The notes under the pieces were generated by a model, which was not told the origin of the DNA, ran no database searches, and saw nothing but the letters and a program-made list of their open reading frames with translations. From NCBI GenBank assembly GCA_963702425.1, contig CAVPCQ010000032.1, positions 169,901-233,900 of the forward strand: DNA of 64,000 nucleotides. The letters run 5' to 3'. Shown piece by piece: positions 2,708-64,000 of this stretch (within the stretch, counting starts at the first letter, position 1; every line of letters starts with the position of its first letter). The DNA is from an uncultured Acidobacteriota bacterium (lineage in GTDB: Bacteria > Acidobacteriota > Polarisedimenticolia > J045). The translations under genes were made by a program, and so were the position numbers.

Positions 2708-3859
2708 ATGTCGATCCGGTACCGACCCTCCCGCACCTTCAAGGGGGCGCTTGCGACGCTTGCCGCCTTGCTGCTGGTGCTACTGATCGCTCGGGCGATC
2801 GTGCTCTGGGAGGGGTCCGCACCACCTGCGCCGGCGCCTCGCCCGGTCGTCGCGTCCGCCGCGCCGGATCACGCGCCGCCCGCGACGGTGCCCGCGCCGC
2901 GGCGCGTCGGCCTCGCGGACATGCCGGCCCCCTTCCCCTGGACCCGCTCCACCCCGCTTCCGCAGCCGCTCCGCTTCCGGGTCGATCTCGACCTGCTCGC
3001 GCCGCTCGGCACGGGCCCGGCGAACGCGGCGATCTGGTTCCGCGACTTCGCCAAGCTGGACGGCAGCCGCAGCGCGTGGGGGAGCGAGAAGCGCGTGATC
3101 CGTCCCGTGGGCGGGATCGACGAGAGCGTCTTCCCGCCCGACGACCCGGTCCTTCTCGAAGCGGAGCCGTGGGTCGACCAGGCCACCATGCGCTTCTACC
3201 CGGACGTGTGGCCGATGGCCGGACCCGAGACGCAGATCCCGAATCTTCTCTTCGAGATCACGCTCGCGAAGTCCTGGGCGGCACGCGCGGATGCGACGCG
3301 CGACGCCGCGCTGGCAAAGGAGGACTATCGGCGTGCCGTCCGCCTGGGCCGGCTGATCCTGCAGGACGACGTCACGCTGATCTCGAACCTGGTCGGCCTG
3401 GCGTGCGTCCGGATCGGGGCCCGTGGCCTCTACGAGCAGGCGCGCCGCGAGGGGGACGCCGAGACGATGCTCGCCGCCAGCCTCGCGCTGCACGACGCCG
3501 ACTGCATTCGCCAGCTCGCCGCGGAGCGGCTCACGAAAATCACCGTAAGCAATGAGCTGCGCTGGCACTGGTCGCGTCCGCTCAGCCCGACGATCCGCGC
3601 CACGGACGAGCAGTTCGAGGCCGCACTCGCGATGGCGAAGACGGACCCCTCGCACGCCCTGCGGCTCGAGGCGCAGTGGGCGCTCATGGGTTACGTCCTC
3701 GCCGGAACTCGAATGCAGGGACGGCAGGCGCGCGAAGCGCTCGCCGAACTCTCCCACGACCCGGACTCGCTCGTCGCGGCGTCGGCACGCGCGACGCTGG
3801 AAGCGGCGGACCGAACCGGTCTGCGGGAACTGCTGCGGATGCTGAAGGCCGGGCCGTAG
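2708..3859 (+). CDS. Membrane-anchored helical hypothetical protein; degenerate paralog at about 56490-57161
   Basis: N-terminal TM, Pro/Ala linker; RLGRLILQDDVTLISNLVGLACVR matches the paralog. Confidence 0.75.
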   Translation: MSIRYRPSRTFKGALATLAALLLVLLIARAIVLWEGSAPPAPAPRPVVASAAPDHAPPATVPAPRRVGLADMPAPFPWTRSTPLPQPLRFRVDLDLLAPLGTGPANAAIWFRDFAKLDGSRSAWGSEKRVIRPVGGIDESVFPPDDPVLLEAEPWVDQATMRFYPDVWPMAGPETQIPNLLFEITLAKSWAARADATRDAALAKEDYRRAVRLGRLILQDDVTLISNLVGLACVRIGARGLYEQARREGDAETMLAASLALHDADCIRQLAAERLTKITVSNELRWHWSRPLSPTIRATDEQFEAALAMAKTDPSHALRLEAQWALMGYVLAGTRMQGRQAREALAELSHDPDSLVAASARATLEAADRTGLRELLRMLKAGP

Positions 3860-48807: not shown

Positions 48808-50012
48808 TGTCCTTCGCCACAATCGAGTCCGCGCACTGCTGATAGCTCACGCGGCGTGGAATGGCAGGCAGAGACGCCGGCCGAACGCGCCCCTCGGTCT
48901 GCCGGCGACGATCATGCCCACCGGCTGACAGAGATCGCGGCGGTCTGCCTTCCGCAACGGCAGACGCCCTCCACGACGAGACCGCGGCGATGGGCTGGTC
49001 GGGCGGAAGCGCCAGGCCGCGCGGCGCCAAGCGTAGCGATGATGAAGACCGCCGAGGCGAGGCAGAGCGATGATTTCGGCGGCTGGATGCGGCTTCGACT
49101 CCACGGCTCGCACTGCGGGCGCATCCTTCTCCAAAGACAAGTGCGTCCGGTCGTTGGGGTAGTACGAGGCGAAGCAGGCCAGAAGGCGCTGGAGGTGTTT
49201 CTCGTTGAGGACGATGACGTGGTCGAGGAGCTCGCGGCGTGCGGTGCCTACGAACCTCTCGGCGACTCCGTTCTGCCAGGGACTGCGAGCCGTGATCTGC
49301 TTTGGTTCGATGCTCATGTGGCGGATCGCGGTGAGGACCGCGTGGCCGTACTTGGCGTCACGGTCGAGGATCAGGTAGCGCGGTGCCTGGTCGTAGGGGA
49401 ACGCCTCGCGGAGTTGCTGCGTGATCCAGGCCGCCGTCGGATGGGTGGTGACACGGAAGTGCATCAGCTCGCGCCGAGCGTGGTGGACGACGAAGAAGAC
49501 GTAGAGCACGCGGAACGTGGCGGTGGGGACGGTGAAGAAGTCGATCGCGGCGATGCCCTCGCGGTGGTTGGCGAGAAAGGTGCGCCATCGTTGCCGTTCG
49601 TCGGGATGGGCCGAGCGCCGGGGCATGGTGCGCGAAACGGTGCGCTCGGAGACCTCAAGGCCGAGCTTCCGGACCTCGCCGTGGATGCGCGGCGCACCCC
49701 ACGATCGCGGCCAGCAGCGGCGCAGGGTAAGCCAGAAGAACCGATCGGACGCGCGGAGACGAGGTCGAGGGTGCTTCCGTCGGAGTACGGCAAGCTGCTA
49801 TCGGAGCGCGAGGTTTTCCAGGATCAGGTCGGCCCGGTTGGCGAAGATCGCGAGGAGAGCCTGGGCGACTGCCAGAGCGTGGTAGAGCATCCACGCACGA
49901 TGACGGCGGTCGGGACGGAGGGCAACCGGACTCGTCCGCGGGCGCTTCGGGTATCCTGCACAGGAGCGCAACTCGTTCAGGAGCAAGGCGGACGGGGATG
50001 TGGCGAGGCACA
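48808..50012 (-). mobile_element. rve-integrase IS (IS481/IS3-like), internally deleted copy 1
   Basis: 25-bp imperfect IRs tgtccttcgccacaatcgagtccgc (48808) and gcggacggggatgtggcgaggcaca (to 50012); no target duplication seen. Confidence 0.88.
48847..49890 (-). pseudogene. DDE integrase-core transposase lacking about 160 nt relative to copy 2
   Basis: ENLALR, AIDFFTV, LILDRD, SPWQNGVAERFVGT, LGGLHHRY; deletion junction near 49703. Confidence 0.85.
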
Positions 50013-56489: not shown

Positions 56490-57161
56490 TCATCCTCCTA
56501 CCCCGACGTGTGGACGGATGCGCGGCTCGCGCCGAGTTCTCCGAACCTGCTGCAGATGGTCAAGCTGGCCGACTCGTGGGTTGCCCGCAGTGGCACCCGG
56601 GCCGATTCGGAAGCGGCCCGGGAGGATTGCCGGCGCGCGCTCCGGGTCGGCCGGCTGCTGCTCCAGGACGACGTCACGTCCAGCCAGAACCTCGTCGGGA
56701 TCGCGTGCGTCCGGGCCGGCGCGGAGTGCCTCTACGAGATCGCGTGCCGGGATGGGGACATGACCGGCCTGCTCGTCGCCCAACGCGCGCTGCACGATGC
56801 CCTTGGCCTGCGCACGCGGACCGACGGACGGCTCCAGGCGCTCGTGGTCTTCAGCTCGGTCGAGCGCCGCTGGTGGGCGCCGTGGCAGAGGGTCGTGCGG
56901 CTCTCCGACCGTGATGTGAGGAAGGTGATCCGCATGGCAAGGAGCGATCCGTCCCGCGCCTTGCGGATCGAGGCATAGCCCCACCTCGCGGGAATCGCCC
57001 TGCTCGGATCCTCCGACCAGCGGGCCTCGGCCCGGGGCGCTCTCGACGAGTTGGCGAAGGACCCCGACCCGCTCGTCGCCTCGTCGGCGATCGCACTGCG
57101 CGAGGCGGTGGCGAAGGGGATGGACGACGGCAGTGCCTTCGCCTGCCTCAGGGGGACGTGA
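56490..57161 (+). pseudogene. 5'-truncated paralog of 2708-3859 with an internal TAG at 56976-56978
   Basis: YPDVW, PNLL, RVGRLLLQDDVT..NLVGIACVR, DPSRALRIEA*; DPDPLVASSA after the stop. Confidence 0.8.
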
Positions 57162-59894: not shown

Positions 59895-60782
59895 ATGGAA
59901 TCCATGGTCCGCTTCGCGCAGTCGCCTGCTGCGGCCTTCCTGGTCATGGCTTCCGTTGCCCTTCCGGTGGGGGCCGCTCCGGACGAGGCCTGGCCCCCGG
60001 CGATCGAGGACAATTCGTTCCTGGTGGAGGAGGCCTACAACCAGGAAGCGGGCGTCGTGCAGTGGATCTTCACCTTCCAGCAGTTCCGGCCGAGCGGCAC
60101 CTGGTACGACGCCTTCACCACCGAGTGGCCGGTGCCCGACCAGACGAACCAGCTGAGCCTGACGGTCCCCTACATCGCCGAGACCGAGCGCCTGCCGAGC
60201 GGCTGGGGCGACATCAGCCTCAACTACCGCTACCAGGCACTGGCCGGCGGCGAGCGCGGGTGGTGGTTTGCGCCGCGCCTGAGCGCGCTCCTGCCCACCG
60301 GGGAATGGCGCGATGATCTCGGGAATGGGGCGCCCGGCGTGCAGATCGGCCTCCCCTTCAGCCGGCGCTTCACCCGCGGCTTCGCGATGACGCTCAACGC
60401 CTCGGGGCAGTACGTCCCGCTGGCGCGTGGGACGGCGGAGGACGGCAGCAGCTTCAAGGCCGACACCTGGGGCATTTCCGAAGGCATCAGCCTGGTGTGG
60501 CTCGCCTCGCCCCGCTTCAACCTGATGCTGGAGGCGCTGGCGACGCAGGATCGCGTGGCCGTCGACGACGGCCGCACCGAGGTTGTGAGAATCGCGGTCG
60601 CGAGCCCCAGCTTCCGCTGGGCTGTCAACTTCGAGCGCGGGCAACTGGTACTCGGGGCCGCGGTCCCGATCGGGCTGACCGAGGCCAGCCCGGACTGGAG
60701 CGCGCTGTTCTACGTATCCTGGGAGTCGGCTCTCTGGACGCCGAAGTCCCCGGCGCCGAGCGCGATCAGCCGCGCGGAGTGA
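59895..60782 (+). CDS. Putative outer-membrane beta-barrel transporter-family protein
   Basis: Signal peptide; IEDNSFLVEEAYNQE.GVVQ, GWGDISLNYRYQ, LPTG; alternating beta-strand pattern. Confidence 0.72.
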   Translation: MESMVRFAQSPAAAFLVMASVALPVGAAPDEAWPPAIEDNSFLVEEAYNQEAGVVQWIFTFQQFRPSGTWYDAFTTEWPVPDQTNQLSLTVPYIAETERLPSGWGDISLNYRYQALAGGERGWWFAPRLSALLPTGEWRDDLGNGAPGVQIGLPFSRRFTRGFAMTLNASGQYVPLARGTAEDGSSFKADTWGISEGISLVWLASPRFNLMLEALATQDRVAVDDGRTEVVRIAVASPSFRWAVNFERGQLVLGAAVPIGLTEASPDWSALFYVSWESALWTPKSPAPSAISRAE

Positions 60783-60853
60783 CGCCCTCCGTCACCGTCT
60801 CCGCAATCCGTATCCCGCGCTGCTCCAGCTCCGCCAGGCACCACGCGTAGGTG

Positions 60854-62857
60854 GTAGGGTCGAGGACTGGCGCGGTACCCCTTAGGACGCGGCCTATCCG
60901 TTGCTCCCCGTTTCCTCTGGGAGTGCCTCACTAGCCAGATCCGTGGCCCCGTTTCCAGCCCCCGCCACATCGCACGCAGCGTGCGGATTTCCCGCACTAC
61001 GCGCTCCTGCACACTTCGCATCAAGGGTTATGAGACCTATCGGCCGGAGCGACTTTCGGTGATGAGGCCACGAGGTATCGGATCCGGTAGTCGCCGAAGA
61101 GTCCGAGCGTCCCGTACAGCCATCGCCTACTCCACCGCTTCCAGCCGAAGCCGGGCGCTATCGGGCTCGCGCCAGATGACGCCGGATCTTCTCTCTACCC
61201 AGTATCGGATAAACGAGAAACACCGACTCGAGTGCCCGATGCGCAAAGTAGTTCACCCAGCCGCGCAGGATCGGATTGATCTTCGCGATCAACCTCCTGG
61301 TCGGCTGGGAGCGAAGGCGGCGAAACACCTCCTTGAGCTCGCGTAGCAACGCCGTCCGCTTCTTAGCTTCGGCGTGCGCAGCGGCATCCATCGCCCCGCA
61401 CGACTCCGGACACGACGGAACTCAAAGCCGAGGAATCCGAAGCTCTCCCCTCTGCGTCAGATCCACCATCCGGCTCTTCTCCTCGTTCACCTCCACCTGC
61501 AGCTTGGCCAACTCCTCCCGAAGCCGTTTCTCCACCGCCTGCCGAAGCCACGCATGGCGCGGATGCGGGTCCACCAGGATCACCAGATCATCGGCAAACC
61601 GGGCGTACTCGATCGCCGTGCAATCGACCGTGGCGCGTGACCTCTTTCGCCCGCTCCAGCATCCTGTCCACCTCATTGAGGTACAGGTTGCTGAGCAACG
61701 GCGAGATCACACCGCCTTGAGGAACTCCCAGCTTCCCGGACGCCTTCAGGATCATTCGCAGCAAGTGCATCACGTCCTCGTCATCGACTCGCTTGGCCAC
61801 CTTCTCCAACACGATGGCATGTGCCACCGTGTCGAAGTAGGACCGCAGATCAAGATCGATGACATACGTCTTGCCTTGAATGATCGCCTCCGCGACGCGC
61901 TGCATCGCGTCCTGCGGTCTTCGCTTGGGCCGGTAGCCAAACGACCCCGGTTGAAAGTCCGCCTCGAAGATCGGTTCCAGGATGAGCTTCAGCGCTCCCT
62001 GGACCACCCGGTCCCGGATGGATGGGATCGAAAGGACGCGGAACTTGCCGCCCCCTTCGGGATCTCCACCTTCCGGACCCGCTGGGGCCGATAGATGCGT
62101 TCGCTCAGTTCCCTCCTGAGCTGCTCGAGAAGCTATCCACGCCCTTCGCCTCGATCGCTTCGAACGTCACCCCGTCAATTCCCGGAGCTCCGTCGTTCTT
62201 CTTGGCGAGTCGATAGGCCTCCCGGAGCGTCTCCCTCTTGCACACGTGCACATACAGTCCCCAAAAGCGCCAAGACGGTTCAGCCTTCGCCTTGACGTAT
62301 ATTCTTCGTCTCAGGTCTTGCAGATCGACGGGTGCCTTTGTCATCTCACCCCTGCCTCCCTTCTTGACGAAGAATTCATGTGCAGCAGGGCCCCTTCGCT
62401 CCACGGGCGTTACCCCGCTTCCTCGCTACTACGGACCCGGCCGCCACCGTCTCGTCTTCGGCCGATTTCCCGGTGTCTCCGGTTATACGACCTACCTTGC
62501 TCCACCGATTTCTCGATGGGACGAGGACGGCTTCTCCAGTTGCTCGGCATGTCCTTGTCACCGTGCTGCCCCTACCACCCCGCCGGAGTGACCTGCCGCA
62601 TCGGTCAGATTGCGACAGTCATGCTGCCTTCGCCCCGAGACAGAGGGCTCGGCCTCCGGATTCATTATTTGTCGAGGCCACCTCTGGGTTCACTTTCGTT
62701 ACGGCCCGGTGACTCGCTCACCATCCCAAGGATGGCTTTGTCAGTCGGCTTCATCCGATTCGTTTCCTCCACGGATGCGACCCAAGCTACGGGGCTTCTG
62801 ACTCTTGCCCCGGTGGGACTACCTCCCACTGAACATGCCAGCCTTCGCTGGACGCAC
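60854..62857 (-). mobile_element. Group II intron, about 2.0 kb
   Basis: 5' GTGCG at 62857; domain V gcgcgtagtgcgggaaatccgcacgctgcgtgc (61004-60972); domain VI ending ctcgaccctac at 60854; internal RT ORF. Confidence 0.93.
61021..62344 (-). CDS. ltrA: Group II intron RT/maturase without endonuclease domain, multiple frameshifts
   Basis: GAPGIDG, LEPIFEADF..SFGYRP, GVPQGGVISPLLSNLYL, YARFADD, INPILRGWVNYF. Confidence 0.9.
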
Positions 62858-64000
62858 TGCCTCGCCATAACCCCGTCCGCCTTGCTCCTCAACGAGTTGC
62901 GGTCCTGTGCAGGATACCCGAAGCGCCCGCGGGCGGCCGGGTTGCCCTCCGTCCCGACCGCCGTCATCGTGCGCCGATGCTCAACCACGCTCTGGCCGTC
63001 GCCGGGCTCTCCGCTCGATCTTCGCCAGCCGGGCCGACCTGATCGAGAACCTCGCGCTCCGCCAGCAGCTTGCCGTCCTCCAACGGAAGCAACCCGGCCT
63101 CGTCTTCGCGCGTCCGATCGAGTCTTCTGGCTTGCCCTGCGCCGCTGGTGGCCGCGATGGAAGGAGACGCTCGCCATCGTGACGCCTGAGACCGTCATCC
63201 GTTGGCATCGTGAAGGGTTCAGATGGTACTGGCGCTGGAAGTCCGACAACGCGGTGGACGGCCGAGCACAGCACCGAGATCCGGGCCCTCGTTCGCCGGA
63301 TCGCCGCCGAGAATCCGACCTGGGGAGCGCCGCGCATCCACGGCGAGATCCAGAAGCTCGGCCTTGCGGTCTCCGAACGCACGGTCTCGCGCTTCATGCC
63401 CCGGCGCCCAGCCAATTCCGACGCACGCCAACGATGGCGAACCTTTCTCGCCAACCACCGCGAGGTCATCGCCGCGATCGACTTCTTCACGGTCCCCACC
63501 GCCACGTTCCGCGTGCTCTACGTCTTCTTCGTCGTCCACCACGCTCGGCGCGAGCTGATGCACTTCCGTGTCACCACCCATCCGACCGCGGCCTGGATCA
63601 CGCAGCAACTCCGCGAGGCGTTCCCCTACGACCAGGCGCCGCGTTATCTGATCCTCGACCGCGACGGCAAGTACGGCAATGAGGTCCTCGCCGCGATTCG
63701 CCACATGGGGATCCAACCAAAGCAGATCACCGCTCGCAGTCCCTGGCGGAACGGCGTCGCGGAGAGGTTCGTCAGCACCGCACGCCGCGATCTCTCGACC
63801 ACGTCATCGTCCTCAACGAGAAACACCTGCAGCGCCTTCTCGCCGGCTTCGCCTCGTACTACCTCAACGACCGGACGCACTTGTCCCTGGAGAAGGACGC
63901 GCCCGCGGTGCGAGTCGTCGAGCCGAAGCCGCATCCAGCCGCCGAGGTCATCGCTCTACCTCGCCTCGGCGGGCTTCACCATCGCTACGCTGGCGCCGCG
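62858..64000 (+). mobile_element. rve-integrase IS copy 2, running off the window; its terminal TG is displaced to 60852-60853 by the intron
   Basis: tgcctcgccataaccccgtccgc matches the copy-1 IR; transposase from ATG 62977 (ENLALRQQLAVL, PETVIRWHR, WGAPRIHGE, AIDFFTV) with frameshifts. Confidence 0.9.

Follow-up and report, generated by a model that had tools for sequence, protein, structure and literature searches.

A group II intron recurrently inserted two bases inside the terminal inverted repeats of a multicopy insertion sequence family

A decayed intron in the tip of an insertion sequence

The window analysed here, by which we mean the whole stretch of 64,000 nucleotides (nt) taken from an uncultured Acidobacteriota bacterium (assembly GCA_963702425.1, contig CAVPCQ010000032.1, positions 169,901 to 233,900), carries near its far end a group II intron that interrupts an insertion sequence (IS) in its left terminal inverted repeat (TIR). 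The intron occupies positions 60854-62857 on the minus strand (2004 nt), beginning with GTGCG at 62857 and finishing with CCCTAC (...CGACCCTAC) at 60854, that is, with ends that conform to the 5' GUGYG / 3' AY boundary rule for group II introns; a GTGYG start and an end reading CGACCCTAC or similar recur in its relatives. The Rfam model RF02003 (group-II-D1D4-4) matches the domain I core at 62694-62831 (-) over the full length of the model, at 129.5 bits (gathering score 49) and with an E value of 8e-29, which identifies a ribozyme structure of the domain I-IV kind. Positions 60972-61004 (-) can be read from the sequence as a domain V hairpin, with GAAA in its loop and a bulge of 2 nt; they form the aligned part of a match to RF00029 (domain V/VI) that stays under the gathering score of this model. 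The domain VI region behind it is unusually long (about 115 nt between domain V and the 3' end) and, together with the 3' splice site, takes up positions 60854-60971 (-).

Three full-length introns of this kind are present in the genome, the other two (C34:45867-47872 and C17:152165-154170, named after their contigs) each being 92% identical to the window copy. The C34 copy has an intact reverse transcriptase/maturase gene, whose product, the intron-encoded protein (IEP), is 441 amino acids (aa) long and scores 342.8 bits against TIGR04416 (cut-off 300 bits). In this protein Pfam finds RVT_1 (aa 95-309) and GIIM (aa 332-405) only, with about 35 residues after GIIM and no DNA endonuclease domain, and its closest named matches are unclassified ltrA genes on plasmids of Bradyrhizobium, Cupriavidus and Caballeronia (69-71% identical). 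The IEP gene of the C17 copy carries one frameshift, and that of the window copy (61021-62344 (-)) is a pseudogene, broken into pieces by 8 single-nucleotide indels relative to the C34 gene. Because of these eight frameshifts, and because the IS around it is itself defective, the window copy is an old, dead insertion, a fossil. As a side observation, the 2-nt bulge of domain V (window ~60978-60979) is TT in the C34 and C17 introns and AC in the window copy, AC being also the commonest bulge dinucleotide in a noisy, fuzzy search of the relatives.

The interrupted IS (hereafter IS copy 2) is IS3/IS481-like, and the intron separates its left TIR, read on the intron strand, into ...GGCGAGGCA on one side and the terminal CA on the other. 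On the plus strand this terminal dinucleotide is the TG at 60852-60853, which constitutes the first two nucleotides of the 3' exon; the rest of the TIR lies at 62858-62880 (+) and contains, on the opposite strand, the intron-binding sites IBS1 and IBS2. The body of IS copy 2 (62858-64000 (+)) runs off the end of contig C32, where the window also ends, and holds a frameshifted transposase remnant that tblastn with an intact transposase of the same genome aligns to aa 10-342, with a change of frame and one in-frame TGA. Removing the intron joins the TG to TGCCTCGCCATAACCCCGTCCGC (62858-62880), and the rejoined site and the uninterrupted TIR TGTGCCTCGCCACATCCCCGTCCGC at 49988-50012 (-) disagree at 2 of 25 positions, a match with no equivalent in 100 shuffles. 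The preliminary description of the window had reported exactly this agreement (23 of 25 positions) and had argued that the window therefore holds its own empty-site control; both points stand, the control being the uninterrupted left TIR of a second element, IS copy 1 (48808-50012 (-), 1205 bp). Both ends of IS copy 1 are present (the right end reads ...GGCGAAGGACA), its transposase remnant covers aa 117-346, and a deletion of about 160 bp is seen as a gap between the inverted-repeat arms I5 and I1.

An intact transposase of this IS is encoded elsewhere in the genome at L208:126-1163 (346 aa) and scores 37.8 bits against rve_3 (cut-off 26.5) and 33.2 against HTH_32. Its score against rve, 28.0, is below the cut-off of 32.6 bits; the DDE (rve) domain is recognised through rve_3. 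The NCBIfam scores (86.8 for IS3 against a cut-off of 160, 85.0 for IS481 against 224) are both far under the curated cut-offs, and hence we call the element IS3/IS481-like and assign it to neither family.

An exhaustive ungapped Hamming scan of the whole genome with the 43-nt left end (at most 13 mismatches) returned 34 left-end sites, three of them with an intron, 23 empty, and eight shifted by indels, truncated or doubtful. The 23 empty ends all finish ...A-CA and then pass into unrelated flank, and the tips (left TGTGCCTCGCCAC..., right ...GTGGCGAAGGACA) are of the TGT...ACA type. Target-site duplications were seen by inspection neither at window copy 1, nor at the other paired ends in the genome, nor at two miniature inverted-repeat transposable elements (MITEs) described below (L079 and L081), and for this reason we define the tip by the point at which copies diverge and by the complementarity of the left and right TIRs. 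Defined in this way, the IS has TGT...ACA as its ends, with the intron 2 nt inward of the tip, as had been proposed from the window itself. It may be added that in 17 of the 23 empty sites the left tip is followed by a G (CAG...), a bias that right ends do not show; the IS may prefer such targets, or the left repeat may be one base longer.

Recurrence of the junction within and beyond the genome

All three full-length introns sit between ...GGCGAGGSA and CA, and the DNA beyond the CA is unrelated among them. The C34 and C17 introns agree at 1998 of 2007 aligned positions (99.6%), whereas the IS sequences that flank them are 84% identical over 100 nt and only 72.7% over 250 nt, and the two host IS copies carry different internal deletions. 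Introns so much more alike than the DNA around them must have homed separately into different IS copies, and the finding of two nearly identical introns in diverged IS copies suggests that the intron has been mobile recently. A fourth event is represented by a 51-nt intron 3' end at C17:108865-108915 (L209), which follows a complete TIR of the right-end type (...TTGGCGAAGCACA / ...GGCGAAGCACA) and is itself followed by CA and flank; this remnant is either a 5'-truncated insertion or the product of an internal deletion. At the C34 intron, we also observed that the 3' exon runs from its CA straight into another, partial IS end, GGGGTTGTGGCGAGGGACA (L002, ~1480-1500), giving tandem or nested IS ends. 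When 22 other genomes of the same order (completeness 74-100%) were examined, the transposase was found in six, including three of the four in the same genus, and the intron in none (DNA search, E <=1e-20), which indicates that the IS predates the intron in this lineage.

To look beyond the genome, we compared the C34 protein with one genome per species and kept the 80 closest loci by IEP (66-85% identity), for which the 5' boundary could be defined in 63 cases and the 3' boundary in 62. Four of the 80 lie at the same offset in ends of the TGT/ACA type. L010 is inserted in a left end between ...TTCGCCAGGCA and CA, with the N-terminus of a transposase on the opposite strand (read directly from the sequence rather than found as a search match), and L011 in a right end between ...TTCGCCACCCA and CA, with a 40% identical transposase upstream on the same strand. 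L079 and L081, from a single Acidobacteriota bin, place the intron in MITEs, each about 100 nt long and bounded by TGTsCCTCGCCAAAA repeats, their end pairs being TGTGCCTCGCCAAAA with TTTTGGCGAGGGA (then CA) and TGTCCCTCGCCAAAA with TTTCGGCGAATGA (then CA). These MITE ends were missed by a 22-nt inverted-repeat probe and spotted by eye in the flanks, and a 12-nt core was searched for in the metagenome loci below; the MITEs (approximately L079:2383-2483 and L081:2377-2483) are intergenic and contain an internal GTAACAnTGTTAC palindrome. A FastTree phylogeny of 76 proteins groups L010 and L011 into one subclade with the genome's own copy, L008 and L009. Rows with a match shorter than 380 aa or with stops were left out of this tree, L079 and L081 among them; three rows have suspiciously long branches, and the tree was used solely for this placement.

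Metagenome assemblies extend the pattern further. A scan for the junction of GGCGANNNA with GTGYGTCCAG (pattern GGCGANNNAGTGYGTCCAG) led to 80 fetched loci; the pattern proved too loose, and the scan presupposes the junction it finds, so that it informs about spread and not about frequency. About 11 of these loci are introns of the clade, as judged by a protein 65-71% identical, where the gene is present, or by the diagnostic loop in domain I, and all of them lie in TTTTGGCGAnnnA contexts, the first exon-binding site (EBS1) of the intron fitting the three variable bases; the other fetched loci lack both a related protein and that loop and appear to have matched by chance. Upstream of the intron, L088 and L105 have a transposase (54-57% identical) in antisense. 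An inverted TGTCCCTCGCCAAA is found 105 and 334 nt upstream in L098 and L150, which appear MITE-like. The 3' junction is reached in L150 and L156, the only such cases among the metagenome introns of the clade, and in both the 3' exon begins with CA. Altogether, the readable 3' junctions at sites of the TIR type give CA in nine of nine full-length introns (three in the genome itself, L010, L011, L079, L081, L150 and L156) as well as in the remnant.

The preliminary description had put forward recurrent insertion 2 nt from TGT/ACA tips as the observation that would support targeting of transposon ends, and such recurrence was indeed found: in all three full-length copies and the remnant, in four of the relatives, and in about 11 metagenome loci. 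Its statement that the intron is antisense to the transposase holds for IS copy 2 of the window, but does not extend into a general rule, as L011 and the remnant on C17, both at right ends and in sense, demonstrate. At left and right ends alike, the intron invariably points outward from the IS; since both ends are used, which way it faces with respect to the transposase gene is incidental.

Target recognition and the weighing of explanations

EBS1 is located at nt 217-223 of the intron (C34 numbering), where UGCCUCG is the exact complement of CGAGGCA, the last 7 nt of the 5' exon; in the window copy the corresponding segment (62636-62642 (-)) reads UGUCUCG, which leaves one G-U pair in the helix, and at the C17 site there is one mismatch. 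We aligned domain I of 59 distinct intron and exon combinations (three from the genome itself and 56 from relatives), and the EBS1 loop changes together with the exon in pairs such as TCCTATC/GATAGGA, TGGCTAC/GTGGCCA, TGTCTGG/CCAGGCA, AACCGGA/TCCGGTT, ACTCTTT/AAAGAGT and AATGTCTT/AAGACATT. The same covariation is seen in 10 metagenome introns. Further pairs found in relatives include TGGTTCG/CGAACCA and TCGTTCG/CGAACGA. Because one and the same loop varies in step with the 5' exon across the relatives and the metagenome introns, the identity of EBS1 is established, and the EBS1/IBS1 mapping that the preliminary description had called for thus yields a 7-bp pairing backed by covariation.

The second exon-binding site (EBS2) has the status of a candidate. 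A 17-nt hairpin loop upstream of EBS1 contains AUGAUUCCG, which could form 9 bp with exon positions -18 to -10 at the three occupied sites (two of the pairs being G-U in the C34 intron), while the window copy's own loop (AUGAAUCCG, 62657-62665 (-)) pairs at 8 of 9 positions. Counting IBS1 and IBS2 pairs together, the three occupied ends (7+9, 7+9 and 6+9) score highest among the 34 left ends, the best empty ends having 7+8 (four sites) and 6+9 (one site), a ranking that is partly circular, as EBS2 was picked by its complementarity to the occupied exons. On the 3' side, the first exon base is C in 43 of the 62 relatives with a defined 3' boundary, and the only feature common to sites of the TIR type downstream of the insertion point is the invariant CA.

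Taken together, we consider it very probable that these insertions arise by sequence-specific retrohoming of an endonuclease-less group II intron whose regular target is the TIR of a multicopy IS family, the best-conserved part of that transposon. Under this hypothesis, the intron RNA would recognise the strand that reads 5'-...GGGGTYRTGGCGAGGSA up to the insertion point and CA-3' beyond it, EBS1 pairing with the 7 nt immediately before that point and EBS2 probably with about 9 nt further in. Nearly the whole target thus falls inside the IS, and every end of the IS family in which these bases are preserved could serve as a target. By analogy with RmInt1-like introns, the intron would then reverse-splice into the DNA and be reverse-transcribed from a 3' end provided by the host, with host replication presumably priming the integration. 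What is known of DDE transposases further suggests that parting the CA from the transposase-binding portion of the TIR would disable the IS end; the related ideas that the intron immobilises the IS, or uses it as a 'safe site', are ones that we infer rather than observe. Through changes in EBS1, the lineage has kept up with TIR variants across phyla, and it enters MITEs as well, which carry the repeat and have no gene.

Several observations weigh against this hypothesis, in addition to the circularity just mentioned. The RF00029 match reaches 29.3 bits, below the gathering score of 40. Occupancy is low, at 3 of the 26 clean left ends, though four empty ends offer a perfect IBS1. The host IS copies of all three full-length introns are defective, and cause and effect on the IS are therefore inseparable. 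The genome is a metagenome-assembled bin (5.1 Mb in 42 contigs, 91% complete, 5.85% contamination), and public sequencing runs contained at most 12% of the words sampled from window positions 60600-63100. Among the relatives, the two closest (L008 and L009, 83-85% protein identity) lie at other exons, with matching changes in EBS1, and 27 of the 63 with a defined 5' exon immediately follow a hairpin resembling domain V that belongs to another intron. Finally, in L014 the inverted repeat seems to run at least 3 nt past the insertion point, where the contig ends, and this locus may be a counter-example to the two-base offset. TIR targeting is hence the habit of a part of the clade only. The preliminary description had reasoned that relatives at unrelated sites would make the insertion a chance event; such sites are the case for part of the clade, yet chance does not follow from them. 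Its suggestion of a specialisation on transposon ends is borne out as far as recurrence goes, with the difference that the specificity is for the TIR sequence of one IS family, read by base pairing, and not for the structure of transposon ends.

That chance alone was at work, through a single ectopic retrotransposition near an IS end or through an assembly artefact at a repeat, is the least probable of the alternatives that we considered: the window copy does lie near a contig end in a bin with some contamination, but the same junction appears on three contigs and in unrelated assemblies from other phyla, with matching changes in EBS1, and this recurrence led us to reject the idea. Scarcely more credible is that the intron entered one IS once and that the IS then transposed with the intron inside it. 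Such composite transposition would account for the presence of every full-length copy within the same IS family; it is contradicted by the divergence figures for the C34 and C17 introns and their IS flanks, on which we reject it, and also fits poorly with the different internal deletions of the host copies, with the 23 empty ends, and with an intron that stands between the cleaved CA and the remaining TIR. A comparably small probability attaches to targeting guided by structure, in which a DNA hairpin at the IS end would be recognised in place of its sequence. Class C (IIC) introns use a DNA stem-loop together with a short IBS1 and have no EBS2, and some relatives of the present intron do lie right after hairpins (domain V of other introns, or the TCCTAT...ATAGGA stem in L008). 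The present intron, in contrast, has a 7-bp EBS1 that co-varies with the exon and a plausible EBS2 in its 17-nt loop, and the 43 nt that precede its site show no evident hairpin, so that we reject targeting of this kind and do not place it in class C.

A more interesting, if unlikely, alternative is that homing is coupled to transposition, intermediates at the IS tip (a nick made by the transposase, or a flanking 3'-OH that primes copy-out of the IS3 type) serving as both target and primer, and the two-base offset being adaptive. Base pairing would still pick the site, and active transposition would determine how efficiently integration proceeds. We likewise find it doubtful that the offset is functional in the strict sense, with the intron having replaced its missing nuclease by the transposase of the host IS; cleavage or copy-out replication at the tip would then lay bare the ...CA-3' strand and leave, a few bases downstream of the insertion point, a 3'-OH to prime reverse transcription. 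The strand that ends in CA-3' is the transferred strand of DDE transposons, and it is this strand, in the sense of the intron, that ends ...CA-3' at the tip. Also consistent with coupling are the absence of an endonuclease domain from the protein (RVT_1 and GIIM only), the preservation of the offset while EBS1 and the TIR co-vary, the use of both left and right ends, and the one 5'-truncated copy with an intact 3' junction, as abortive reverse transcription would give. The case is one of geometry, however, and descent from a single TIR-targeting ancestor explains the conserved offset equally well. Moreover, the occupied IS copies and the MITEs encode no working transposase, and relatives home efficiently into sites that are not terminal (domain V, IS21 genes), which implies that the clade does not need a DNA end. 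We favor sequence-specific retrohoming by base pairing.

Known systems, significance and relatives at other sites

Homing of group II introns into IS is already known, and what sets the present lineage apart from the described cases we compared it with, which lie in transposase genes, is the TIR itself as the site, two bases from the cleaved tip. A parallel in domains and target is RmInt1 of Sinorhizobium meliloti, which is described as lacking an endonuclease domain, homing into the multicopy ISRm2011-2 and spreading among its copies (PMC3035460, PMC1802570). Its authors propose that such introns may restrain other mobile elements, and RmInt1 is stated to interrupt the transposase gene (PMC3035460); the present intron, by contrast, lies outside reading frames, in the TIR, at both ends of the IS and in MITEs. 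E.c.I4 and other enterobacterial introns are likewise presented, in a study that calls IS targeting a widely used strategy of group II introns, as homing into transposase genes of the IS3 family (IS629, IS911 and others), and they share with the present intron a sequence-specific homing into IS and a partial occupancy of the available sites (PMC3522654). The sites given there are specific positions within transposase genes (PMC3522654), as opposed to the TIR.

Other known systems resemble the present one in having a conserved part of another mobile element as target. Class C introns are described as inserting at terminators and at integron attC sites, outside genes and without an endonuclease, and so as adjoining conserved motifs of other mobile elements in a similar manner (Zimmerly and Semper 2015, PMC4424553; PMC7923331); they differ from the present intron in the mode of recognition set out above. 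Nested introns (twintrons, e.g., in Methanosarcina), for which other introns serve as a 'perpetual homing site' (PMC4424553), also take a conserved sequence of another selfish element as their target, and the 27 of 63 relatives that follow a domain V nest likewise; the host of a twintron is an intron, whereas in the window it is the end of a DNA transposon. IStrons associate a self-splicing intron, of group I, with an IS (PMC4227781). They move as one unit by means of the IS transposase, in contrast to the present group II intron, which moves alone into IS ends. In the full-text literature searched we found no description of a group II intron homing site in the TIR of an IS, although the main compilations of insertion sites, which were outside that search, could list cases; the IS-related terms looked for do not occur in Toro and Martinez-Abarca 2013.

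The clade offers a natural data set of co-evolution between introns and their targets, a plausible route to the permanent disabling of IS ends, and a test case for how endonuclease-less introns gain access to targets and primers. There is also a consequence for annotation: an insertion of 2 kb located 2 nt from a TGT/ACA tip hides IS ends and MITEs from tools that look for intact TIR pairs. If coupling to transposition were true after all, one mobile element would be exploiting the DNA-processing intermediates of another and would cap the IS end as a side effect.

As for relatives at other sites, the 27 loci that follow a domain V are L012, L017, L023, L024, L028-L030, L032, L033, L037, L039, L040, L042, L044, L045, L047, L050, L051, L053, L055, L056, L060, L062, L065, L067, L073 and L084. 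In these, the intron is inserted between domains V and VI of an intron of the same Rfam family, precisely where domain V has its 3' end; they make up a twintron-forming subclade whose EBS1, AACCGGA, matches the 3' strand of domain V. In L044, for instance, Rfam finds the outer D1D4-4 intron, and the domain V of that intron ends where the inner one starts. L035, L041, L058, L066 and L082 have in common another intron-like 5' exon motif, GCGCCGGGATAAACCGGCATG, and a reading frame with RVT_1 lies downstream in L082, which suggests a second type of nesting in group II introns. L080 has IS21 genes on either side, and L085 interrupts a transposase gene of the IS family studied here. Finally, elsewhere in the window, there is a direct repeat of 139 nt with 74% identity, its two copies (3319-3457 and 56621-56759) lying 53 kb apart.

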